Shown piece after piece: positions 4,339 to 45,223 of a stretch of DNA of 64,000 bases (positions are counted from its first letter, which is position 1; the number at the start of each line of letters is the position of its first letter). The translations under genes and the position numbers were made by a program. The stretch is from Candidatus Woykebacteria bacterium RBG_13_40_15 (GTDB taxonomy: Bacteria; Patescibacteriota; Microgenomatia; Woykebacterales; RBG-16-39-9b): NCBI GenBank assembly GCA_001816655.1, contig MHCP01000030.1, forward strand, positions 69,623 through 133,622, read 5' to 3'. Below the pieces are notes generated by a model. That model saw only the letters and a list, made by a program, of their open reading frames with translations, was not told the DNA's origin and made no database searches.

Positions 4339-4407
4339 CTGCGACCATTTCATGGACTAAATTTGGGTACTCTCAAATGCTGCGACCACTTTGTGGACTA
4401 AAATAGA
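4339..4407. promoter_or_regulatory. two adjacent copies of a dyad motif GCGACCAY-TTY-RTGGAC TAAA (CCAC-N3-GTGG core) in the pfkB upstream region
   Basis: Read directly: ctgcgaccatttcatggactaaa at 4339-4361 and ctgcgaccactttgtggactaaa at 4378-4400. A third, inverted copy lies at 5270-5300. Confidence 0.35.
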
Positions 4408-4541
4408 TGTGCTCAATTTGTGAAGAAGAAACTAAAAAACTTTGTCCTCACTCAATCAAAATTAACCATTAGGATAGCGGATTTCTACCATTCAGACTTT
4501 CTTTTTTTGGTATAATATGAACATATAGACTCCGAAAGGCG

Positions 4542-5190: not shown

Positions 5191-5293
5191 CGACAACCTT
5201 ACCGGCGGAAACGAATATGTCGATCTTGTGTTCGAAAACTGACTGAATTGCGGAGATAACATCTGGCATTAGTTTTAGCCCACGAAGTGGTCG
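5191..5293 (-). repeat. degenerate copy (about 70% nucleotide identity) of the last ~27 codons plus stop of fba; frame kept (MPDVISAIQSVFEHKIDIFVSAGKVVE*)
   Basis: Aligned by eye to 5414-5520: shared ccttaccg, cgaatatgtc, tgaattgcggagataacatctggcat versus tgaatcgcacttataacggttggcat. Confidence 0.5.
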
Positions 5294-5329
5294 CAAACTT
5301 ATGCGGACTCAGTTTTTCCAGCCGACCCA

Positions 5330-5413
5330 AAAATTTCAATTTTGCGCTCTACAACGGCTTGGATCGATGTTATAACGGTCGGCATAAGTTTTAGGAGCGG
5401 TAGCGACGCAAGA
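5330..5413 (-). repeat. second degenerate tandem copy of the fba 3' end; frame kept (MPTVITSIQAVVERKIEIFGSAGKTESA*)
   Basis: ttttgcgctctacaacggcttggatcgatgttataacggtcggcataagtttt versus ttttatgctcaacaacctcttgaatcgcacttataacggttggcataatttta in the real gene. Confidence 0.5.
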
Positions 5414-6286: not shown

Positions 6287-7266
6287 GACGTGCCTTTTCT
6301 TTTTAAAACTGTCCTTACGGCCTCCTTAATATCTTTTACACCCATCCCATACTTGTCCAGTAACTCTCTCGGATGTCCAGACTCACCAAATGTATCTTTT
6401 ACCCCAATTCTTTCAATTGGAACAGGATAGCTCTCAGCTAAAACCTCGGCTACTGCTCCACCAAGACCACCATCTATTTGGTGTTCCTCCACTGTAACAA
6501 TTGCGCCTGTTTCTTTAGCCGCTTTTGCAATTCCAAGCTTGTCAATTGGTTTCACCGTATGGTTGTTGATAACTTGCACGCTAATTCCCTCTTTTTCTAG
6601 TTCTTTTGCAGCCAAAAGGCAGTAGTAAACCAATGGGCCACAAGCAATAATGGTTACATCTTTTCCTTCTCTGAAAATTTCCGCTTGGCCGAATTTAAAA
6701 GGTGTTGCCTCTGTTGTAATTACTGCAGTTTTTCCCCGGGCAAAGCGAAGATAAAGCGGGCCTTTGTGCTCTGCAACATAAACAGCTGCTTTTCTAGTCT
6801 CGATGTAATCACACGGAACAACCACAGCCATATTCGGCAAAACTCTCGCTATCGCAATATCTTCCAAAGCTTGATGAGTTGCTCCATCACCACCAACACT
6901 GATTCCAGCGTGAGAGCCAACTATTTTTACATTCGCTTTTGAATAACAAACGCTGACTCTAATTTGATCCCAGGTTCTTCCAGGAGCAAAAACTGCCAGA
7001 GACGAGGCGAAAGGAATTTTCCCGTTTAAAGCAAGCCCTGCTGCAATTCCAATCATGTTTTGCTCGGCAATACCACACTCAAAAAACCTCTCAGGAAATT
7101 TTTCCGCGAAAGAATCTACGCGGGTTGATTGCTTAAGGTCTGCGCTCAATGCAACAACATCCGGGTTTTTCCCAGCCTCAAGTAAACCTTCCCCATAACC
7201 ATCCCGCATCGAAATTTTCTCGATGTCGGAATCAAAAATTTTTGAATTTAGGACAGTTTCCCTCAT
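6283..7266 (-). CDS. tkt: transketolase, C-terminal (pyrimidine-binding) subunit of a split transketolase
   Basis: 327 aa, FECGIAEQNMIGIAAGLA... and GGDGATHQALEDIA motifs. Overlaps fba by 4 nt. Confidence 0.85.
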   Translation of the reverse strand: MRETVLNSKIFDSDIEKISMRDGYGEGLLEAGKNPDVVALSADLKQSTRVDSFAEKFPERFFECGIAEQNMIGIAAGLALNGKIPFASSLAVFAPGRTWDQIRVSVCYSKANVKIVGSHAGISVGGDGATHQALEDIAIARVLPNMAVVVPCDYIETRKAAVYVAEHKGPLYLRFARGKTAVITTEATPFKFGQAEIFREGKDVTIIACGPLVYYCLLAAKELEKEGISVQVINNHTVKPIDKLGIAKAAKETGAIVTVEEHQIDGGLGGAVAEVLAESYPVPIERIGVKDTFGESGHPRELLDKYGMGVKDIKEAVRTVLKRKGTS

Positions 7267-9402: not shown

Positions 9403-9869
9403 AAAGCCTCGAATTCCTCAATTTTTTTAAGGCGTCTCATGTGCCTCTCTTCAGCTGAAAACTCTGTTGAAAGCCAAGCATCAACTATTCTTTCCGCCTC
9501 CTCGAGCGATAACCCGGGAATTGGAACCAGTGTTTTTCCACCTGAGAGACAGAGTACATTTGCATCGTTACGCTCACGACTCAATTGCGCAGTTGTCGGA
9601 GTCCAAGCTGCAATTGCTCTTACCCACCTAACCTTATTAGCAGCAATACACATACCCTCCGCTGATCCGCAAAACAAAATTGCTTTTGATTTTCCTTTTG
9701 ACTCTGCTACTTTCTCGGCTGCCACAAAAGCAAAATCCGGGTAATCGTCGTCTTTATTTAATACGTGAGCACCCAAATCCTCAACCTCGTAATTATTCTC
9801 TTTAAGATGGTTCTTAATTTTTTCTTTTAACTCAAATCCTGCGTGATCGGAAGCTATATAAATTTTCAT
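9390..9869 (-). CDS. rpiB: ribose-5-phosphate isomerase B
   Basis: 159 aa, MKIYIASDHAGFELKE and LFCGSAEGM motifs of the RpiB/LacAB family. Confidence 0.85.
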   Translation of the reverse strand: MKIYIASDHAGFELKEKIKNHLKENNYEVEDLGAHVLNKDDDYPDFAFVAAEKVAESKGKSKAILFCGSAEGMCIAANKVRWVRAIAAWTPTTAQLSRERNDANVLCLSGGKTLVPIPGLSLEEAERIVDAWLSTEFSAEERHMRRLKKIEEFEALWQK

Positions 9870-11140: not shown

Positions 11141-13720
11141 ATGACAATTGAAATAACCAAACCCTGGAATTTAACTATTGATCAGGTTTTCAAGGCATTA
11201 CAGACTTCAAGTAATGGTCTTTTACACCATGAAGTTATAAGACGATTAAAGAGACATGGCTTAAATGACATTGAACGAGAGTCTAGGCGAGGCGCATTAA
11301 AAATCTTTTTGAGCCAATATAAAAACCCTCTAATTTTAATTCTAATTGTTGCCAGCATTCTTAGTTTTTTCATGGGTGATCGCCTAGGATCAGTTATTAT
11401 CCTCGTAATGCTTGCTGTTAACTCTCTGATGGGATTTTTCCAGGAGTACCGTTCGGAAAAAGCAGTTGAACTTCTTCGAAGAAAGGCTAGTCTAAAAACT
11501 ACTGTTATTCGAGAAGGTGTAGAACACAGAGTTGATGCAACTGACCTTGTACCTGGAGACATCGTTAAAGTTTTTCAGGGTAGTGTCATTCCAGCCGATT
11601 TACGACTTATTGAAGCAAAAAACTTATCAATCGACGAGTCAATGCTTACAGGTGAGTCAGAACCAGCTGAGAAAAGTAGCAATTTAATTAAAGTAAACCA
11701 GGAAATTCCGCAAGAATTGGAAAATATAGCCTTCATGGGTACAAATGTTGAAACTGGAAATGGGCTTGGGGTTGTTTTTGCCACTGCGGGAAATACCGAG
11801 TTTGGAAAGACAGCTCTTGCTCTTAAAGCAGCTGAGCCAGAAACAGAATTCCAAACCGGAACAAGGAAATTTGGAAATTTTCTTGTTATTGTCATTTTGT
11901 CCCTCGTAGTTTTCATATTTCTGGCAATGGTTTTTATCAAACCAGTATTTCTCGGGATTCCAGCTAATGTACTGGAAGCACTTCTTTTCTCGCTGGCTCT
12001 AGCAATTGGAATCACACCTGAGCTTTTACCAATTATTATTACCATCAATCTTTCTCAAGGTGCCATGATGATGTCCAAAAAGCACGTGATTGTAAAAAAG
12101 CTGATGGCAATAGAGGATATAGGTAACGCAGACGTATTATGTACCGATAAAACGGGTACTATTACAGAAGGAAAGATTTTTTTGGAAGACTACGTTAATT
12201 ACAATGGTTTGCAAGAACCAAAACTGCTACTTTATGGCCTACTTAGTAACACAGAGGTAGATCAGCCAGCAATCACTCACCCCCTTGAAACCGCCCTAGA
12301 CAGATTTACCCAAATGAGAAAGGAAATAACAGATGAAGCCAACTCGTTTAAAAAAATTGATACTCTGCCATTTGACTTCGAAAGAAAGCTCAACACCGTT
12401 CTAGCTAAAAATAAAGAAGGCTATTTTGTAATTTCAAAGGGGGCAACTGAAAAAATCTTAAAAACCTGTTCATCAATTTACATTGAAAAGAACCGGACGC
12501 TTTTGCTGGAAGGTTATCGAAAAATTTTACGAGAAAAATTTATTCAGCTAAGTAGTAGTGGTTTAAGAATACTGGCAGTCGCCTCGAAAAAAATTAAAGC
12601 AAAAAATAAACTCGCAAAGTCTGATGAGAAAAATCTCACATTTGAAGGTTTTCTTGTTTTCTCAGACCGACCGAAACACACAGCTCCTGAAACAATTAAA
12701 GACTTGGAGAATCTCGGTGTGCAAGTAAAAATATTAACTGGTGATAACGAATATGTCACAAAGCATATTTGCGATCAAGTAGGGATTGAAGTTAAAAACA
12801 TAATCACTGGGGAGTCGATCGATGTACTAACGGATAGTGAGTTTGCTGAGACAGTAGCTGAAGCAACTATTTTTGCAAAAGTCACTCCAGAGCATAAACT
12901 TCGGATTATTCAGGCTATAAAACAAGCTGGGCATACAGTTGCTTTTATGGGAGATGGCGCAAACGATGCCCCAGCTCTCAAAGCTGCTGATGTTGGTATC
13001 TCAGTTGACACTGCGCTTGATATCGCAAAAGAAGCGGCTGATATTATATTACTCCGAAAAGGCCTCGACGTGTTAATAGAAGCAGTAAAGGATGGGCGGA
13101 GGACTTTTGGTAATTCAATGAAATACATTTTCACAACTTCTAGCGCCAACTTCGGAAATATGATTAGTCTTGCTGGAGCTTCTATGTTTATCCGCTTTAT
13201 CCCACTTTTACCCGCTCAGGTAATATTACTAAACATTTTAAGCGATCTACCTTCTCTAGCAATTTCCACCGACAATGTAGACTCAGAGTATCTGAAAAAA
13301 CCAAAGCATTGGGATATCCATGAGATTAGTAGATTTATGGTTCCATTTGGCCTTATTAGCTCGATTTTCGATGTTACAACTTTTTTCCTTCTGTTTTACG
13401 CTATTAGTCATTTGGCCAACCATGAAAGTCTTTTCAGAACTGGGTGGTTTATCGAATCCCTACTTACTGAAATATTTGTGATTTATCTTATTAGAACAAG
13501 AAGGGCATTTTGGAATAGTCGTCCAAGCAGCGTGTTACTTATCGCAGGCCTATTATCATTTTTTGTCGGGGCAGCTTTCATCTATACTCCAATTTCTCAA
13601 ATATTCCAATTTGTCGCCCCGCCTGTGAATATCTTAATGATTATCGGATTAATCTTGGTAGCCTACCTCTGCCTCACCGAATTCGCAAAAAGGATTTACT
13701 ACAAAAAAGTCAGCATTTAA
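11141..13720 (+). CDS. P-type cation-transporting ATPase, MgtA-like (Mg2+ transporter family)
   Basis: 859 aa. DKTGTIT phosphorylation site, GDGANDAPALKAADVGISV hinge, TPELLP (PEMLP-like) in TM4, ten predicted TM segments. Confidence 0.8.
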   Translation: MTIEITKPWNLTIDQVFKALQTSSNGLLHHEVIRRLKRHGLNDIERESRRGALKIFLSQYKNPLILILIVASILSFFMGDRLGSVIILVMLAVNSLMGFFQEYRSEKAVELLRRKASLKTTVIREGVEHRVDATDLVPGDIVKVFQGSVIPADLRLIEAKNLSIDESMLTGESEPAEKSSNLIKVNQEIPQELENIAFMGTNVETGNGLGVVFATAGNTEFGKTALALKAAEPETEFQTGTRKFGNFLVIVILSLVVFIFLAMVFIKPVFLGIPANVLEALLFSLALAIGITPELLPIIITINLSQGAMMMSKKHVIVKKLMAIEDIGNADVLCTDKTGTITEGKIFLEDYVNYNGLQEPKLLLYGLLSNTEVDQPAITHPLETALDRFTQMRKEITDEANSFKKIDTLPFDFERKLNTVLAKNKEGYFVISKGATEKILKTCSSIYIEKNRTLLLEGYRKILREKFIQLSSSGLRILAVASKKIKAKNKLAKSDEKNLTFEGFLVFSDRPKHTAPETIKDLENLGVQVKILTGDNEYVTKHICDQVGIEVKNIITGESIDVLTDSEFAETVAEATIFAKVTPEHKLRIIQAIKQAGHTVAFMGDGANDAPALKAADVGISVDTALDIAKEAADIILLRKGLDVLIEAVKDGRRTFGNSMKYIFTTSSANFGNMISLAGASMFIRFIPLLPAQVILLNILSDLPSLAISTDNVDSEYLKKPKHWDIHEISRFMVPFGLISSIFDVTTFFLLFYAISHLANHESLFRTGWFIESLLTEIFVIYLIRTRRAFWNSRPSSVLLIAGLLSFFVGAAFIYTPISQIFQFVAPPVNILMIIGLILVAYLCLTEFAKRIYYKKVSI

Positions 13721-35551: not shown

Positions 35552-35822
35552 CCAGCAAACGAACCGGCATGAATACGACAGAGCTTCTGATGATTCAGTC
35601 CATGAGAGGCCACAATTGGAGGCTCTGATACCCTATTCACGGCATTTGCCGCTGCAGCCGTGGGCTGCGGGATCGCTATCGACCATCCTCGCTCTCGCTA
35701 CGGAAGAAGCGGAAACCGGGGCCTTGAGCAAGCCCCCTCCTTACTTAAATGTCAAGAAAACGCTATTCCAATGCCCTCACTTTTACTGAGCAAAGTCGAA
35801 ATAAGAATTGAGAATAAATGAT

Positions 35823-36302: not shown

Positions 36303-36375
36303 TTCGGAAGAATTATATTACCTATTCAATTTTTATTCAAGCAAGAAATGTTCTTCCAATGTTCTTACTCGTCAT

Positions 36376-36430
36376 GAGCTAGTTTGCCCTGAGTGTAATC
36401 GAAGGGAAGGAAGAATTTGAGGGTATACCT
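36376..36430 (+). repeat. copy X of a dispersed intergenic repeat (permuted/junction form)
   Basis: gagctagtttgccctgagtgtaatcgaagggaaggaagaatttgaggg matches the end plus start of copy Y (39990-40108). Confidence 0.5.
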
Positions 36431-37613: not shown

Positions 37614-37726
37614 TATTTCTTTTTATCTTTCTTAGGTTTCTTTTTTTCTCTTCTTTGTTTACCTTGACTGTGAGCCATAGAGTGTAATTATATGCTCGCT
37701 AACACCAAAAGACAAGGACACTTTGT

Positions 37727-38977
37727 TTACTCAACAAAAGTTAGTGCTGTTCCCCTTTTATTTAATCGCCCAGTACGCCCGATACGATGGACGTAGTCGT
37801 CATAAGTCTCTGGAAGATCGTAGTTGATTACGTGAGAGACATTATCTATATCAAGTCCCCGACTAGCTACATCGGTAGCCAGTAATATGCTTATTTCATC
37901 ACTCTTGAAGCTTTTTAATATTTTTTGCCTTTGGGATTGCCTTTTGTTTCCATGGATAGAACCAACCCTGAAACCACGCATCGTCAATTGGCTATCCAAT
38001 TTATCAATCCCGTGCTTGGTACGGCCGAAAATCATCACTTTATCGAAACCTTCTTTATTTAAAAGGTCATGCAATTGATCCACTTTTTTACTGCGATCCA
38101 CAACTTTAATGACATCCTGTTCGATATTTTCAGGAGTATTTTGTTTTTTGACCGAGACTGTTACCGGATTGGTAACAAAGGCGGTCAGCACCTCGCGTAC
38201 TTTGGGTGGAATAGTAGCCGAAAAAAATAGTGACTGACGAGGCCTCGGAAGTAAGGAAATAAAGTATTTAACGTCGTTTATAAAACCAATGTCCACCATC
38301 AGATCTACCTCATCCAAGACAATCGTCCGAAAATCACCAAGATAGAGGTGTTTGTGATCAACTAAGTCCTTTAGTCTTCCAGGAGTACCTATAACCACGC
38401 TGGGCCGGCGGCTGAGGTCTGCAATTTGCCGGTGTATATTTGCGCCTCCAATAACAAGACTTGAATAAATACCCAATCCCTCTGCTAGGATATGCAATTC
38501 CTCATTGATCTGGCCTGCCAGTTCCCTAGTAGGGGTGACGATCAGAGCTCGCTGTCCCCTGTCTCTAGCGATTTTGTCTACTAAGGGAACTAAAAAGGCT
38601 GCTGTTTTACCAGTACCAGTCTGGGCTAGTCCGATCAGGTCGCGGCCTTCAAGAATCGGTTTAATAGCTTGATCTTGAACGGGAGTTGGGTTCTCATAGT
38701 CTTTTTTTGCAATATTTGCTTTCAAAGCGGGAACAAGATTGAAATCCTCAAATTTGTACCTTGTTTGATAATTATCTACTGAAGAGTTTCCTACCGCTTT
38801 CTTAATAAAAATACTTGTGTTCCCCTCTAGCTCACTTTTAGGACCACCAGAATACCGACTCTGGTTAGAGATACTTTTTGGATAGCTGTAACTGCCCCCA
38901 TTTCCATTTCTTTTAAATTTTCGTCCGCCAAAACCGCTCGCGCGGCCGAAGCTTGCACTATTTCGCGATCTATGCAT
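37727..38977 (-). CDS. DEAD-box ATP-dependent RNA helicase with an N-terminal RG/S-rich tail
   Basis: Q-motif, AQTGTGKTAAF, PTRELA, DEVD (DEAD variant), SAT, HRIGRTGR. Confidence 0.85.
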   Translation of the reverse strand: MHRSRNSASFGRASGFGGRKFKRNGNGGSYSYPKSISNQSRYSGGPKSELEGNTSIFIKKAVGNSSVDNYQTRYKFEDFNLVPALKANIAKKDYENPTPVQDQAIKPILEGRDLIGLAQTGTGKTAAFLVPLVDKIARDRGQRALIVTPTRELAGQINEELHILAEGLGIYSSLVIGGANIHRQIADLSRRPSVVIGTPGRLKDLVDHKHLYLGDFRTIVLDEVDLMVDIGFINDVKYFISLLPRPRQSLFFSATIPPKVREVLTAFVTNPVTVSVKKQNTPENIEQDVIKVVDRSKKVDQLHDLLNKEGFDKVMIFGRTKHGIDKLDSQLTMRGFRVGSIHGNKRQSQRQKILKSFKSDEISILLATDVASRGLDIDNVSHVINYDLPETYDDYVHRIGRTGRLNKRGTALTFVE

Positions 38978-39222
38978 GATTTTTGAATGAGAAAGACTAA
39001 GAAGAAATAGTGTTTGCAGTCAGAGCAAAAACTTTGAAATCCTAGGCCTGCCCGACAAGCCCAATGCTAGTCTAGGCGGGCGGTGAGCTAATTTCAAAGA
39101 CTCATTCACTCTGCTTCTAATGCAGAAAATAAAAGAAAATAAGTGTTTGTATAGCTCAAATTCTAATTCAAGGAGATAGTTTAACATAGCTAGAAAAATA
39201 AAGCAAGTGCTATCGGACTGTT

Positions 39223-39275
39223 GGATTTTATGGCTGATTTGATGGGATTTCAAATATTGAGCTGGACGAAATCGC
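39223..39275 (+). repeat. copy Z of the dispersed intergenic repeat (left flank of the higBA cassette)
   Basis: ggattttatggctgatttgatgggatttcaaatattgagctggacgaa matches ggattttagggctgattggatggggtttcaaacagtgagcttgaag in copy Y. Confidence 0.5.
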
Positions 39276-39295
39276 GCTAAGAAAGGGTGTTATCT

Positions 39296-39592
39296 TTATC
39301 TTGAGCTAAAATGGAGATGGACTTTAAGATCCAAAGCATCTGCCAATTTTCTAATTTGAGAGAGTGATGGGCTAGCAGTTGCTGTTTCCAAACGTGATAT
39401 AACAGCTTGTCCTGTCTTCATTCTTTTTGCAAGCTCCTCTTGCGAAATCTTCTTTTTTATGCGCGCTTCGACTATTGCCTTTACAATCTCGAACTCTGGC
39501 TGTAAATCATCATATTCTTTCCTAACCCCAGGTTTTGCAAGGAGCTTTTTTTTAAATTGTTCGTATGTTGTAAAATTTGGTCTTTTTTTCAT
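39296..39592 (-). CDS. higA: HigA-like XRE-family HTH antitoxin
   Basis: 98 aa, HTH ISQEELAKRMKTGQAVISRLE. Overlaps the upstream toxin gene by 4 nt. Confidence 0.7.
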   Translation of the reverse strand: MKKRPNFTTYEQFKKKLLAKPGVRKEYDDLQPEFEIVKAIVEARIKKKISQEELAKRMKTGQAVISRLETATASPSLSQIRKLADALDLKVHLHFSSR

Positions 39593-39888
39593 ATTTTGTA
39601 TTCTCCTAAACGCTTTTTTGCTGTTTCTATTTCGTTCTTGGGTGTCTTTTGACTTTTCTTTTTGAAAGCATTTACGACTATAATCCTAGATTTCACTTTA
39701 CCTAAAATCAGCCTAATATTTCCAGGTCGTAGTTCCCACAAATTCTTATCCAGCTTCTTTAAATATTTTCCCGGTAAGGTAAATTGATATTGATTAAATA
39801 AATCAAAATATCCAACAATCCTACCTTGATCTGTATCTGCTAAAGTTTCGACAAATTGGTTAACCCGCTTGTCAACAATTACATTCAT
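39589..39888 (-). CDS. higB: RelE/ParE-superfamily toxin, HigB/phage Gp49-like
   Basis: 99 aa. LWELRPGNIRLIL motif typical of Gp49/HigB killer proteins. Toxin lies upstream of antitoxin, the higBA order. Confidence 0.65.
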   Translation of the reverse strand: MNVIVDKRVNQFVETLADTDQGRIVGYFDLFNQYQFTLPGKYLKKLDKNLWELRPGNIRLILGKVKSRIIVVNAFKKKSQKTPKNEIETAKKRLGEYKI

Positions 39889-39989
39889 ATAAATATTATG
39901 ATAAATTTGTCATATTGTCAACTTATTATCTAGCGAAAAAATTATACCATAAAATAAATCATCGCTATTCTAATTTTCTCATTCGTCCT

Positions 39990-40108
39990 AAGCGAAGCCG
40001 AAGGAAAGTAAGAATTTGAGAATGCTTAAGGAGGGGATTTTAGGGCTGATTGGATGGGGTTTCAAACAGTGAGCTTGAAGTTTACACTGAGTGAAATCGA
40101 AGTGAACC
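39990..40108 (+). repeat. copy Y of the dispersed intergenic repeat (complete unit; right flank of the higBA cassette)
   Basis: cgaaggaaagtaagaatttgag...ggattttagggctgattggatggggtttcaaacagtgagcttgaagtttacactgagtgaaatcgaagtgaacc. Same orientation as copy Z. Confidence 0.5.
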
Positions 40109-40205
40109 TGTGTCAAGGAAAGATTGGGAGAATTCTCAATTATCAGTCCATAAAATTAATTTCCTATGTTCAGTCCCTTTAGATTGTACTGTCTCCGTGT
40201 TTTAT

Positions 40206-40505
40206 TTATCTTCCTCTTCCACGCTTTACAATTTTTGCATTTTCATTCATTACACCGAAACGGGTTCCTTCAGTGGCATCCACGGCTTGCTTAACCAGTT
40301 TATTTGGTACTGCAATATAAGGTGTTTTTGTTGACGCAGCTAGTTGTTGTTTTGCATGACCAAAAGCATTTGGATCAACTTCCACCTCAATCGCCTGAGT
40401 TTTAGTCCGAACATCCACTCCTTTGTCAGAAGTGTAATCGGTTTCTTTAATTTGGGCTATTTTGATTGCAATCTGTTTATGCTGTTTACTTTCCACAATA
40501 ATCAC
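40206..40505 (-). CDS. hypothetical protein (99 aa) between the repeat and the restriction-modification (R-M) operon
   Basis: Clean ORF, not recognised. Confidence 0.4.
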   Translation of the reverse strand: MIIVESKQHKQIAIKIAQIKETDYTSDKGVDVRTKTQAIEVEVDPNAFGHAKQQLAASTKTPYIAVPNKLVKQAVDATEGTRFGVMNENAKIVKRGRGR

Positions 40506-40682
40506 CCCCTTACGGGATAGTTTAATATTATTTAATTATTTCAAGATTTTTCCCTCTCTCCCTGAGGTCAAAAGACTACAAAAAGAAAGGCCTGTTTAAA
40601 AATCCATTGTATATATTATACTACTCAAGCGACTAATTTGGAAGATAGAATAACCTTTTTTAGCCTCAAAGTTACCCTTAAT

Positions 40683-41870
40683 TTAGGAAAAAGGTAGTTT
40701 TTGTTGATCTACCCATACTGTTTCTCGTAAATTAACTTTTTGGATATTAAAATCTATTAATGATTTATGAACTTTTTTCTTCTGTATCAAGAAAAGGAAT
40801 TCTTTATTCTGAATGTTGTGTTCGTTTTCCCCTAACCATTCATTCGTCCAAGTCATTGTTGACATAACATTTTTCTTGTAATCCATCTCCAAAATAGAAC
40901 ACGGTAAATTAAGCTCTCGTAAAATTTCCATTATAGCATCAAAGGTGGCTCTTCCATTGTTGCTATAAGACAAAACAACATATTTTGCATTAGTCTTTTT
41001 TATTAGTTCTTTAAGTGCGTTAATAACAACATATCGGCCATTTTTGTCCTTTCGAAACTCCTCAAAAATTGACCCCGCAACTATATCACTTACGTCCTCA
41101 CGTCGATTAGCCGCACCTACCACCTTTGGTTTGTCATTAAGACAGACCGATTTCCAAATATGATAGTAAGAGGCATATCGAACACGTGATGGGGGCATAA
41201 GTTCATTAGAAGAACCATATGGTGGATCATAGTAGGCTAGATCAACCTCTACTTTATCTAGGAGGTTAAAAATATCATCGCAGAAAACCCGATGATCCAT
41301 TTCATCTATTATTAACCTCGGAGCCTCCATTTTCATTACATGGTAAGCGCGGGGGGCCCATTGTTTTAAATAAGAAACGTGGTGCCCTACAGAACTATCT
41401 ACCTTATCCATTGCTAAAATTAGGCTTGTGAGAAGTACTGACTTTTCAATTTCATCTTTTGAAACCTTATCAATTTGCTCACGGATAGCATCAAGCTTCA
41501 TAGTATTATGCAACTGCCACATCTTCTTTCTACCATCTATATCTACAGCACTACCACCGTTAGGTTCTCCACCATAATGTTTCGAAAACCATCCCAACTT
41601 ACCTGGAATTTTATTCAAATTATCAATCAGGGGTAGATAGTAAGATGCTGGTTTCCTATTTAAAAGATAGCATTGCCCAAAAATTTTTGACCATACAGCA
41701 ATATCGTTTGCATAAACAGTATACCCAGCCTTTTTGAATGCTTGAGAAACTCTTGTGGTACCAGAAAAGCCGTCGAATATCGTACTAACATTTAAGGAAG
41801 CTACTAGCTTGAGTAGAATGGGAATTATCTCCCTTTTTGATCCTGTGTACTTAATACCTTCAGTTTGCAT
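40683..41870 (-). CDS. DNA N6-adenine methyltransferase, Dam/D12 class (R-M methylase)
   Basis: N-terminal KYTGSKREI (Y.GSK) and motif IV YYDPPYG. 395 aa. Confidence 0.8.
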   Translation of the reverse strand: MQTEGIKYTGSKREIIPILLKLVASLNVSTIFDGFSGTTRVSQAFKKAGYTVYANDIAVWSKIFGQCYLLNRKPASYYLPLIDNLNKIPGKLGWFSKHYGGEPNGGSAVDIDGRKKMWQLHNTMKLDAIREQIDKVSKDEIEKSVLLTSLILAMDKVDSSVGHHVSYLKQWAPRAYHVMKMEAPRLIIDEMDHRVFCDDIFNLLDKVEVDLAYYDPPYGSSNELMPPSRVRYASYYHIWKSVCLNDKPKVVGAANRREDVSDIVAGSIFEEFRKDKNGRYVVINALKELIKKTNAKYVVLSYSNNGRATFDAIMEILRELNLPCSILEMDYKKNVMSTMTWTNEWLGENEHNIQNKEFLFLIQKKKVHKSLIDFNIQKVNLRETVWVDQQKLPFS

Positions 41871-41919
41871 ATTATTATCCTTCTATCTGATTTTAGCAAA
41901 AGAAAGTATCTATTGTAAG

Positions 41920-42750
41920 TTATATTACTGATTTTTCTTTTGATTGTGGAAATAATTTTAGAATTTCTTCGTGCTTGTCTTTTGGAGAAACAAGAATTTT
42001 TGAAATTAAGTTAATAAGAGACTCATTAATTTTATAGGAACCGCTCAGTAGCTCCCGAAAGTAAGGTTTTGCATTTTCAGTATGTGTCCACAAACCTCTT
42101 TGTAGTGCATTAGCGCTTACTCCACCGTATCTTACCTCAAAAATATACTGACCTTTCTCATTATAGAATTTATATATTGGAAATGTCTGTTTAAGTCCTA
42201 GTTTCCTTGGTGGATAAAACTTGATTTGTCTAACTGATTGGTAAGCGCGAGACAAATCAAATACAACAATTTTGAAGTTTAACTGCTTTTCGTTGTAAAT
42301 TAATGGCAGAACATTCACAGCACCGAAATTCACAAAACATGGTTCGTTCAAAATAATTTTGATTTTGTTTATGTCTTTAATATCCTTGTTAGCTACCACT
42401 TTTTGTAGAAACTTAAACATCGAACTGTCTTTATTCGTTGACAGTTGCAACGGACCAGCGCCATATGTTTTTACGCTGACAGGGATTTCAGATTCAGATT
42501 GAAGGTCTTTAATCCTGATATCTTCTTCAAATTCCTTTGCTCTAAACTTTTCCTTCCCAGTGTGTCGAGCAGAAAAACCATCGACAAACTGATTGATGTA
42601 TTCCGTAAGTGCGATTTCTGCAAGATCTCCGTGTGTTTTGTTTCCTATAACTCGCATGGAGAAAACATTAGCTAGGACGCTGTAAATAATCGGTTGGTTG
42701 CCTCTAAAGCTCTCTTCAAATTTGTTTAAAAACTTATCAAATGAAGACAT
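41920..42750 (-). CDS. putative type II restriction endonuclease (assigned by position between the C and M genes)
   Basis: 276 aa. No family recognised. 3-nt gap to the C gene and 50-nt gap to the methylase. Confidence 0.45.
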   Translation of the reverse strand: MSSFDKFLNKFEESFRGNQPIIYSVLANVFSMRVIGNKTHGDLAEIALTEYINQFVDGFSARHTGKEKFRAKEFEEDIRIKDLQSESEIPVSVKTYGAGPLQLSTNKDSSMFKFLQKVVANKDIKDINKIKIILNEPCFVNFGAVNVLPLIYNEKQLNFKIVVFDLSRAYQSVRQIKFYPPRKLGLKQTFPIYKFYNEKGQYIFEVRYGGVSANALQRGLWTHTENAKPYFRELLSGSYKINESLINLISKILVSPKDKHEEILKLFPQSKEKSVI

Positions 42751-42752
42751 AT

Positions 42753-42968
42753 TTAAGAGTCTTGAAATAAGTCTGCTAATTTCAGATTAAGAGCTGTTGC
42801 TACTTTTTGTATATTCTCGAGGGTAATATTTTTCTCAGCCCTTTCTATCATTCCAATATACGTCCTATGCATGCCAGCCCGATCCGCTAACTCCTCTTGA
42901 GATATTCCAAGTTTTTTTCTTTCCGCTTTGACACGTATAGCAAAACTAAGTAGTACAGAACTTTTCAT
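42753..42968 (-). CDS. R-M controller (C) protein, XRE-family HTH
   Basis: 71 aa. LGISQEELADRAGMHRTYIGMIERAEKNITLENIQKVATALNLKLADLF matches the C-protein family pattern. Confidence 0.75.
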   Translation of the reverse strand: MKSSVLLSFAIRVKAERKKLGISQEELADRAGMHRTYIGMIERAEKNITLENIQKVATALNLKLADLFQDS

Positions 42969-43009
42969 ATCGAGTTAAGTTTATGATAATGCTAACTTTA
43001 GTTCTACAT

Positions 43010-43017
43010 ACTATAGT
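43010..43017. promoter_or_regulatory. C-box-like palindrome ACTATAGT about 42 nt upstream of the C gene, nested in GATAA...TTATC
   Basis: Perfect 8-bp palindrome read from the sequence. Resembles the GACT-N3-AGTC C-box core. Confidence 0.35.
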
Positions 43018-43221
43018 TATCGAAGGAAGAGTTGGTGGTTTATTAGATTTTGGCCTCAAAATCGATTCCGATTGATTTCTCTCTTTAGTTAGATGGAAGA
43101 TGTTAGATTGAAGACTGAAGGCGGGTTGGGAGTTGACAATAATTGGGCAGCCTACTATAATAAGTCCATAAAACTAGGGAATGATCCTAATTCAGGGTCC
43201 TCCCTATTTTTGTTAGCCTAT

Positions 43222-43497
43222 CTAGAACCAAAGCGGATTTAGAAGAGGTTCGCCAAGAGCTTTGGAAATTTTCTTAAGAGTCGCTACCGAGGGCAAAGAG
43301 TGCATTGATTCAATACGAGAAATCACCGGCTGCTTCATACCTACTTTTTTGGCAAGCTCTTCTTGCGATAAATTCTTTTTAATCCGTACTTCAATTAAAC
43401 TTTTTACCAGTTGATATTCCGGCTCCAAATCTTCGTAAGCTTTTTGGATAGCCGTATTTTTCGCCCAGCGTCTTTCAATTTTTTCGAATGGAACCAA
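43222..43497 (-). CDS. HigA-like XRE HTH antitoxin paralogue (orphan)
   Basis: 91 aa, about 45% identical to 39296..39592 (LSQEELAKKVGMKQPVISRIE). Uses a TTG start. Confidence 0.65.
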   Translation of the reverse strand: MVPFEKIERRWAKNTAIQKAYEDLEPEYQLVKSLIEVRIKKNLSQEELAKKVGMKQPVISRIESMHSLPSVATLKKISKALGEPLLNPLWF

Positions 43498-43700
43498 CTT
43501 GATTTTATTTTTTCTCCTAATAAACCCCCTTTACATACTCAAAAATTCGAGGGAATCTTATAACTTTTTTGTTATAAAGTCAACGGTCAATCAAGACAAC
43601 CCGATTTTATCGCTTTGGCAATCAGGCGTCAAATATGTAGGGAAATGGTTCGACAGGCTCACCACTGGGTTGGGAGTTGACTAAAGGTTGACAAAAAGTT
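43498..43700 (-). pseudogene. decayed HigB/Gp49-like toxin remnant upstream of the orphan HigA
   Basis: The minus-strand reading keeps ttaggagaaaaaataa (compare ttaggagaatacaaaatatga, the LGEYKI* end of higB) and gtcgaacca (compare gtcgaaact), but has multiple stops. Confidence 0.4.
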
Positions 43701-43787
43701 TACAATATATTTACAAAGACCCTGTTTCCGAATTGTCACCGTATGGTGCGCGTTCCAAGCTTACGTTTGGATAGGAAGCAGGGTCGC

Positions 43788-44411
43788 TTATTTAAACTCC
43801 CATAAATCTTCAATTTTTTTGGAGCTCTTTAATTCATTTAAATATCTCTTCTCCTTACCTGAAAATACTGAAAATATTGATCCTGCAACCATATCAGCAA
43901 GTTGAATAAGTGTGTTTTGCCTAGATTCCACAAATTTCAAATCTTTAAAAATCTTCTTACTTTTATTGTCCAATTCTCTGCTTAGATATGTGCGAAGCTG
44001 GTCTCTCAACTCCTTTTCACCTCTTTTGTCAAATTTTAATCGTGCGTTTTTTATAGAACCGCTGCTATGCTTTAAAACCTGCATAATAATGTAGTTATAA
44101 AAGTTTTCTTTGTTATTTCGAAGGTGAGAACTTCGAATATTTTGTTTGCCCGCAACAATTGCTCTAATTCGAAATTTGTATGTTTTCACTGTTTCAAAAA
44201 ATAAATCTTTAAATTTTTTATTAGTTTTATTGAATTTAAATTCGTAAAAATCAGAAACTTTCAATTTCCTCCGCAACTCCTTAATTGCAAGGGATGTTTT
44301 CTCTGCTTCTAAATCGTCGTCAAACACAACTAATGCAATAACAAAGACTTTAGTTGATCCTTTATCAATTTTGAATCCTGGGTCTCCTGAATCATCGATA
44401 AAAACAAGCAT
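43788..44411 (-). CDS. DUF3800-family protein
   Basis: 207 aa. N-terminal LVFIDDSGD and C-terminal IQLADMVAG, characteristic of DUF3800. Confidence 0.6.
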   Translation of the reverse strand: MLVFIDDSGDPGFKIDKGSTKVFVIALVVFDDDLEAEKTSLAIKELRRKLKVSDFYEFKFNKTNKKFKDLFFETVKTYKFRIRAIVAGKQNIRSSHLRNNKENFYNYIIMQVLKHSSGSIKNARLKFDKRGEKELRDQLRTYLSRELDNKSKKIFKDLKFVESRQNTLIQLADMVAGSIFSVFSGKEKRYLNELKSSKKIEDLWEFK

Positions 44412-44522
44412 GGTAAAATTTTATCGCTTTATGAATCAAGCATCAATTAAATCAGAGTTAAGAATTGGGGTTTTTGAAGGCGGGAGGATTTATTTCTTTT
44501 TCCCTTTTATTTTTGTTTCTAT

Positions 44523-44714
44523 TCACTTCAGAAGAGGTATGGCATCTCTTTCGGGTCGCTCAGCAAACTTTTTTCTCGTGCGTGCCAGTGAATCATCTAT
44601 TGCTTCGTTCGCCCAAGAAGAAAAGCTCTGTCCGGCTAGCAAGAGATTGGCTCTTAATTTAAGATAGTTTTCTTTGTTTACCATCACTGAGATTTTGTAG
44701 TTTTTGTTTTCCAT
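44523..44714 (-). CDS. ribbon-helix-helix (Arc/MetJ/CopG-like) small DNA-binding protein
   Basis: 63 aa. ISVMVNKENYLKLRANLLLAGQSFSSWANEAI fits the RHH beta-strand plus two-helix pattern. Confidence 0.45.
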   Translation of the reverse strand: MENKNYKISVMVNKENYLKLRANLLLAGQSFSSWANEAIDDSLARTRKKFAERPERDAIPLLK

Positions 44715-45223
44715 ATTTCTATAATACCCTAATTATATATTTATGTCAATATGGTTTTATGGTATCAAAGGGGACCTAAAGTATCTCTTATTTACCTCTT
44801 CTTACCGGCTTTGTGGTGGTTTTTTTGGAAAGACTTTCTACCTGCATTTCGACCATTAAAGGCATTAGAGTGTTTCCTTACTTCCTGCGGCCAGGTTGGT
44901 TTCATGCTTTTATTATACATCTTACCCAAGTAATAAATAAGGTGGCTGCCTCTCTGATACCTTGCTTATTTGAATTAAGGGTGTAGACTGAAAGCAGTGA
45001 CTGAAAACGTAAGTGATTTCATTTCCTTTCATAATGCCCATATATTAGATCCGGAACTTACCGCCAGCTTCGAGACTGTTTCAGTTTTTGCAGCAAAGAA
45101 AAATATCGCCCTTGAAGATTTATCGATCGAAAAACACAGGCTCCCTTTTATCAACTGGTGCATCGGCCTCACTATCTCCCAAGTCTAATCTTTAAGGATA
45201 ATTCAAAAGGCCTAGCTTAGTAT

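Follow-up and report, generated by a model that had tools for sequence, protein, structure and literature searches.

We analysed a 64-kb stretch of DNA (the window) from a bacterium of the candidate phyla radiation (CPR), Candidatus Woykebacteria bacterium RBG_13_40_15. In this window a higBA toxin–antitoxin (TA) gene pair lies between two direct copies of a short intergenic repeat. The pair is an accessory type II TA cassette. Within a 5.5 kb defence and addiction island that interrupts the promoter region of a conserved DEAD-box helicase gene, it is the innermost unit and the one nearest the helicase, and the repeat around it appears, from its match to the promoter consensus, to be a duplicated promoter module of that same gene. 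The original prediction, made from the letters of the window, had proposed a shuffled TA cassette rather than a fixed chromosomal locus. This is supported by two relatives with helicases 91–93% identical, which lack higBA upstream of the helicase, and by homologous pairs that sit in unrelated but likewise bracketed contexts. Its 'intergenic repeat' exists, but as a helicase promoter module, and its TA cassette exists, but as the inner unit of a larger island. On balance, we think it probable that the locus as a whole is best explained as an accessory cassette within an island, bracketed by a helicase promoter module that was duplicated through recombination. The features that carry the argument are as follows.

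39223–39266, minus strand: repeat copy Z, predicted promoter module of the DEAD-box helicase gene (alignment and promoter scan).
40035–40078, minus strand: repeat copy Y, predicted second copy of the helicase promoter module, 147 nt upstream of higB (alignment and promoter scan).
37727–39222, minus strand: DEAD-box helicase gene (37727–38977) with its conserved leader of ~245 nt, downstream of copy Z (domain and relatives).
39254–44764, minus strand: low-GC island of 5,511 nt, absent from the relative L005 (synteny by tblastx and junction alignment).
39589–39888, minus strand: higB toxin gene, 99 amino acids (aa), Gp49/HigB-like, RelE/ParE superfamily (open reading frame (ORF); PF05973; 6AF3).
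39296–39592, minus strand: higA antitoxin gene, 98 aa, Xre-type helix-turn-helix (HTH) (ORF; HTH_3).
39893–39921, minus strand: predicted promoter of higBA itself, TTGACA-17-TAATAT (promoter scan).

Copies Z and Y align without gaps and in direct orientation at 38 of 44 positions (86%; repeat search and local alignment). The local alignment scored 58, where 300 shuffles averaged 19 and never exceeded 27, and nhmmer against the whole window recovered the pair with E = 9e-5 and 3e-4. A weaker match runs on past a 12-nt gap, to ~39290 at Z and ~40108 at Y; with this gap allowed, the copies are ~80% alike over some 55 nt. The two direct copies on either side of the TA pair, in the same orientation, are thus as first described, and the caveat that their similarity might prove insignificant in a proper alignment falls away, given the margin over the shuffles. 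The position proposed for Z was right; that proposed for Y (39990–40108) was too wide, the true core being 40035–40078. Counted within the 64 kb, the core occurs only as these two copies. Nothing can be learned from L002, a contig of the same strain whose end falls inside Z, since Y and Z have no exact 31-mer in common.

All neighbouring genes lie on the minus strand, and on this strand both copies contain a sigma-70-type TTGAAA-17-TAAAAT element in identical register, each matching 10 of the 12 hexamer positions in a consensus scan (predicted promoters 40065→40037 in Y and 39253→39225 in Z). None of the six mismatches between Y and Z affects a hexamer, and 14 of the 17 spacer positions are identical. 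A reading of the repeat as a coding remnant was also considered, the minus strand of both copies translating as SSS[LI]FE[TI]PSNQP* with three synonymous changes. It was dropped: Y has a stop two codons upstream, in the core of a homologous locus (L009, below) the frame is lost through one base, and the conservation is already explained by the promoter.

The relatives indicate which copy is likely to be the resident one. In L005 (with L006, a relative whose helicase is 91% identical), the position of Z is taken by the helicase promoter TTGACA-17-TAAGAT, which can be aligned with the half of Z nearest the helicase. Y and Z differ at three sites of this L005-alignable stretch, and Z has the L005 base each time. 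Because Z keeps the L005 bases and sits at the L005 helicase-promoter position, we take Z as the probable resident promoter and Y as the extra copy. The helicase leader is conserved in L005/L006 and in L007/L008 (helicase 93% identical), and the nearest homologues of the helicase all come from Woykebacteria or Microgenomates. The leader (38978–39222) folds better than shuffled sequences (z = −2.4), and a 39-nt GC-rich hairpin (39046–39084) is inserted in it in the window alone, being absent in L005 and L007.

On either side of the island, L005 and the window are collinear, and in L005 a small basic ORF is directly followed by the helicase promoter. The pentamer TTTGA, the start of the −35 element, occurs there once; in the window it stands at both island ends (39249–39253 and 44765–44769). 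The island has a GC content of 0.352, lower than that of its flanks (0.40 and 0.43). The island genes run in the order of a ribbon-helix-helix-like 63-aa ORF, a DUF3800 gene with a DUF3800-IX RNA, an HTH gene, a type II restriction endonuclease, a D12 methyltransferase, a 99-aa gene, module Y and higBA. The ends of neither the island nor the cassette carry terminal inverted repeats above shuffled controls, the examined ORFs at 33–47 kb include no transposase or integrase, and blastn gave no match of the cassette to plasmids or phages. Other TA pairs occupy the same neighbourhood in the relatives. L007 carries HicAB upstream of the helicase, and L005 has a MazE-PIN (VapBC-like) pair between the helicase and a Zn-ribbon gene (11296–12091), where the window has 113 nt only (37614–37726); no flanking direct repeat was detected at this L005 pair. 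The region around the helicase is a hot spot.

Several further observations concern the contents of the island and its margin. The type II restriction–modification pair was assigned by PADLOC:

40683–41870 and 41920–42750, minus strand: island type II restriction–modification pair.

It consists of a D12 adenine methyltransferase (MTase_II, E = 8e-136) and a restriction enzyme (REase_II, E = 2e-64), and is a neighbour of the TA cassette. The DUF3800-IX RNA (Rfam RF02968, 68 bits; 43718–43789, plus strand) abuts the DUF3800 gene (43788–44411, minus strand), which matches the PADLOC candidate defence family PDC-M04A, and the HTH gene (43222–43497) resembles control proteins. The 99-aa protein (40206–40505, minus strand) shows 100% identity to A2172_03435 of RBG_13_40_15, whose neighbour A2172_03430 is 99% identical to HigB; it matches no Pfam or NCBIfam family and is widespread in CPR (44 clusters); a homologue in L109 (3702–4818) belongs to a three-gene operon divergent from lexA. 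Just outside the island, a 45-aa, very basic ORF (44792–44929, minus strand; MKPTWPQEVRK...) is kept in L005 (~9630–9745), directly upstream of the ancestral helicase promoter.

The gene pair itself was identified as first proposed, as overlapping higA and higB between the repeat copies, with ORFs, Pfam families and closest structure in agreement. HigB matches PF05973 (E = 1.2e-15, score over the gathering threshold), its closest solved structure is PDB 6AF3, 'HigB toxin' (phmmer, E = 9e-11), and every one of its 74 homologues is a PF05973 protein. HigA matches HTH_3 (E = 1.1e-12, also over the gathering threshold). higB (39888→39589) precedes higA (39592→39296) with a 4-nt ORF overlap, and all homologous loci show the toxin-then-antitoxin order with a HigA partner. 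The promoter of higBA overlaps a palindrome, TGACAAATTTATCA (39899–39916), the presumed HigA operator, and promoter and palindrome are nearly identical at the DNA level across four homologous loci. Neither protein reaches an NCBIfam model. By sequence-level criteria, the window pair can be classed as an ordinary member of the known HigBA type II TA family.

Three other CPR contigs (L009, L011 and L012) carry a HigB 77–81% identical to that of the window, with the conserved promoter and operator, in unrelated contexts. All three higBA pairs are flanked by direct repeats well above shuffles: 51 nt at 88% (score 73) in L012, where the repeat begins at the first base after higA; 109 nt at 78% (score 98) in L011; and 30 nt, or longer with a gap allowed, in L009 (score 35). 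In L011 a third copy lies upstream of the preceding 207-aa gene, so that two successive units are bracketed, and the arrangement looks like a small cassette array:

L011, 29–124, 864–994 and 1730–1838: repeat of ~100 nt with a terminator-like hairpin, bracketing the 207-aa gene and then higBA.

Flanking repeats were thus found at four of four loci of the clade, compared with 7 of 77 distant HigBA loci used as controls (Fisher p = 2e-4; p = 5.5e-4 after removing redundant Streptococcus loci); the control HigBs from GTDB genomes were at most 47% identical among the matches listed. At 59–68% HigB identity, 0–1 of four loci had them. As a variant, the bracket around higBA is moderately unusual. 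Elsewhere in the CPR, HigBA pairs occur between the genes for ribosomal protein S7 and EF-G, within the conserved rpsL-rpsG-fusA region (L094, 65–2179; L096, 108–6303), with two HigBA pairs in tandem in L094.

What is repeated differs from locus to locus: a predicted promoter in the window, M and P modules (described below) in L012 and a terminator-like hairpin region in L011. L009 further contains a DUF433/DUF5615 TA pair flanked by a 136-nt, 92% direct repeat (4344–4479 and 5206–5341) made up of a core-like promoter and the first ~30 codons of a bcp-like peroxiredoxin gene, of which L005 has an intact orthologue. It follows that the repeats are copied from local sequence and are not element-specific ends. 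Copies of local sequence that vary in length, together with TTTGA once in L005 and at both ends of the island, are also what would be expected if a transposase-like or staggered-cut mechanism had inserted the island or cassette and the repeats were target-site duplications. We nevertheless regard this explanation as very unlikely. The duplications, at 44–136 nt, far exceed known transposase footprints; there are no terminal inverted repeats, and no transposase or integrase among the examined ORFs; the upstream flank of Z is no copy of the matching part of Y; and the five bases TTTGA could equally be microhomology at an illegitimate joint.

The copies of the repeat are embedded in a family of intergenic modules. 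M is ATTCTCAAATTCTT, which in L009 forms the complete palindrome TTCTCAA-N4-TTGAGAA, and P/Q is CTTCGATTTCACTCAG or GCGCGATTTCGTCCAG. M, P/Q and the promoter core are differently combined at Y, Z, two further window sites (X and W), L009, L012 and L005. The additional members in the window are as follows.

39963–40024, minus strand: Y-left, from M (ATTCTCAAATTCTT...) through ...AGAATAGCG, part of the conserved upstream region of the cassette (alignment).
40079–40145, minus strand: Y-right, a degenerate M plus P module (CTTCGATTTCACTCAGTGTAAACT), upstream of core Y (sequence comparison).
39267–39295, minus strand: 3′ flank of higA, GATAACA...CTTAGCGCGATTTCGTCCAG (sequence comparison).
36375–36423, minus strand: X, an M+P module located 8 nt past a 101-aa ORF, with a hydrolase gene downstream (alignment).
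35761–35815, minus strand: W, an M...GAATAGCG module located 8 nt past the hydrolase gene (alignment).

Y-left (39963–40024) matches W (35761–35815) and X (36383–36421) but not Z, and is related to the repeats flanking higBA in L009 and L012; on this side of core Y, the sequence CCTCCTTAAGC adjoins 40034 and leads to M. The right part of Y (40070–40106) matches X (36375–36408). By these alignments Y is a mosaic. Across it, window positions 40031–40120 match an L009 element located downstream of higA (6700–6785; nhmmer, E = 0.0012), to which Y-right is homologous. The segment after the window higA has a counterpart behind the Zn-ribbon gene of L005, with 18/20 identity, and a weakly similar one behind the higA of L009. 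Z is thus itself a joint, with cassette-associated sequence upstream of TTTGA and the resident promoter downstream.

The M and P modules number about five copies in the 64-kb window, all within 35.7–40.2 kb, and over the 142 kb examined in total M and core are restricted to the boundaries of variable segments. The original prediction had allowed that the repeat might be a ubiquitous terminator or repetitive extragenic palindromic (REP)-like element, not enriched around mobile genes. A ubiquitous REP-like, terminator-like or miniature inverted-repeat transposable element (MITE)-like sequence, unrelated to mobility, would accord with the short M and P modules just after stop codons at X, at W and in the downstream copy of L012. 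It is extremely unlikely in view of the remaining data. There are two core copies in the 64 kb, and every module copy lies at a variable-segment edge. On either strand, Y and Z fold no better than their shuffled versions (z from −0.07 to +0.92), and the same holds for X; a scan of Y and Z found no terminator-like site. For 35.4–40.3 kb, Rfam yielded a single chance match and otherwise no entry that reached the gathering threshold or even E ≤ 1. The pattern GGCTGATTNGATGGGNTTTCAAA had zero matches in GTDB genomes and in viral contigs and two in JGI metagenomes, both unrelated and attributable to chance.

Beside these modules, the hydrolase gene (PF20603, 35823–36302) is bracketed by W and X in the same orientation, and the segment from DUF167 to the hydrolase is absent at the corresponding position in L005. 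A GC-rich stretch downstream of W (35560–35745) has no convincing ORF and only a chance Rfam match (E = 0.63); it could be what is left of a gene, or an RNA not yet described.

In L009, three TA pairs in a row are separated by three M palindromes and three cores. Core-like promoters there precede unrelated genes, have a similar spacer (TCCAAnCAG) and are 77–85% alike. Y and Z might then be members of a promoter family kept alike by selection, for example through a spacer-binding regulator, with their position around higBA incidental; the perfectly conserved hexamers would fit. We consider this fairly unlikely. Y and Z also share 10 of 13 bases upstream of the −35 element, which L005 lacks, and their identity (86–88%) exceeds the cross-genome similarity of ~77%. 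Nor would a shared regulator explain why differing repeats surround the same cassettes (the terminator region of L011, M+P in L012 and the gene 5′ end in L009).

Chromosomal integrons typically contain TA cassettes, higBA among them. The genes around the cassette run in one orientation and are separated by co-oriented repeats, and L009 and L011 are array-like, so the repeats could be integron-type attC sites and the locus a cluster of attC sites lacking integron integrases (CALIN). To this interpretation we give next to no credence: a regular-expression scan combined with folding found no RYYYAAC...GTTRRRY pair at Y, Z, X, W or the repeats of L009, L011 and L012, the folds of Y and Z do not exceed those of shuffled sequence, Pfam revealed no integrase among the 19 ORFs of window 33.3–47.4 kb, and Z aligns with a conserved host promoter.

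Recombination between intergenic modules is the explanation we prefer, and its steps can be proposed as follows. Incoming and resident DNA would both have carried members of one module family (M palindrome, P/Q and promoter core). Incoming DNA, circular or partly homologous, would most likely have met the resident intergenic module through a single crossover, although a homology-anchored illegitimate event would also fit the entry. The crossover would have left the cassette between two diverged copies with the helicase promoter intact. Z would still be the copy from which the helicase, with its long leader, is transcribed. Y would remain beyond the cassette, from where it could read into higBA, which would also have its own autoregulated promoter. 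Recombination between the copies could later delete the cassette or free it as a circle. Post-segregational killing is an established property of type II TA systems, and by this means the pair would stabilize itself and its neighbours.

Several points weigh against this account. No circular junction, no allele lacking higBA alone and no recombinase was seen, and the mechanism is one we infer. An empty site for higBA alone was not found: the flanking 99-aa protein has no relative at 80–99% identity, its nearest homologue being elsewhere, next to LexA, and the same-strain contigs L001 and L002 both carry higB. The promoter activity of Y and Z is predicted from a consensus scan, and the search for further copies in this genome covered 64 kb. 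The copies differ by 14%, so that the event would be old or the partners already diverged. The upstream flank of Z (CTTAGCGCGATTTCGTCCAG) is 18/20 identical to the L005 module, versus 11/16 to its counterpart in Y; because it is not a copy of the Y part, a simple target-site duplication fits poorly, and several events are possible. Last, similar spacers are also seen in L009 cores that stand before unrelated genes, so part of the Y–Z similarity could stem from functional constraint acting on a family of promoters, and selection on a shared promoter type probably contributes to it.

The locus offers a base-level example of an island in a housekeeping promoter, with the promoter duplicated so that an essential gene would stay expressed and with a TA cassette bracketed. 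CPR genomes are tiny and contain few transposons, plasmids or integrons, yet have variable defence islands. Should the pattern hold generally, accessory-gene turnover in CPR would be driven by short modular intergenic sequences instead of dedicated recombinases, and promoter duplication would be both the cost and the trace of insertion. If it does not, what remains is an ordinary HigBA pair in an ordinary island. A broader proposal, which we regard as quite unlikely, is that Woykebacteria and related Microgenomates have an integrase-free cassette platform, in which TA and defence genes would be held in arrays at a few intergenic hot spots with modular direct repeats between units. On such a platform, the repeats would act both as portable promoters or terminators and as recombination substrates for the gain, loss and exchange of cassettes by transformation. 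Were it true, the platform would be a functional analogue of integrons in minimal-genome bacteria with few classical mobile elements.

Finally, we compared the locus with known systems. Like Streptococcus pneumoniae HigBA (PDB 6AF3) and Vibrio cholerae higBA-1 and higBA-2, the window pair encodes a RelE/ParE-fold HigB/Gp49-like toxin 5′ of an Xre-HTH antitoxin, with overlapping ORFs and a palindrome over the promoter; it differs from characterized HigBA in that its proteins are distant (phmmer E = 9e-11 to 6AF3) and that its activity is a predicted one. With the TA cassettes of Vibrio superintegrons it shares a small TA unit between direct repeats among co-oriented accessory genes, a presumed array stabilizer, but it has neither an attC signature nor a hairpin, no IntI was found in the examined ORFs, and its repeat appears to be a host promoter. 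The pdif modules of Acinetobacter plasmids are small and integrase-less, some carry TA pairs, and they lie between 28-bp XerC/XerD sites in inverted orientation and are shuffled among replicons. The window cassette resembles them as a small integrase-less module between short, here putative, recombination sites, and differs in that its repeats are direct, longer and chromosomal. In Microcystis aeruginosa, a ParE/ParD-like TA module lies between two identical 152-bp direct repeats that hold a 16-bp inverted repeat; they start soon after the upstream gene and are met again behind the toxin gene, and a recombinase is not reported (PMC7935541). There, too, direct repeats fence a TA pair; the window copies are 86% alike, lack an inverted repeat and look like promoter modules. 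Putative mobile promoters have been described as highly similar upstream sequences before unrelated genes, without a known mobile element, at a cut-off of 50 nt and 80% (PMC3575422; Matus-Garcia, Nijveen and van Passel, 2012). Y and Z are likewise similar upstream sequences, both with the promoter elements TTGAAA-17-TAAAAT by consensus match, but their ungapped match of 44 nt is below 50 nt, and the duplication here is tied to the insertion of a cassette.

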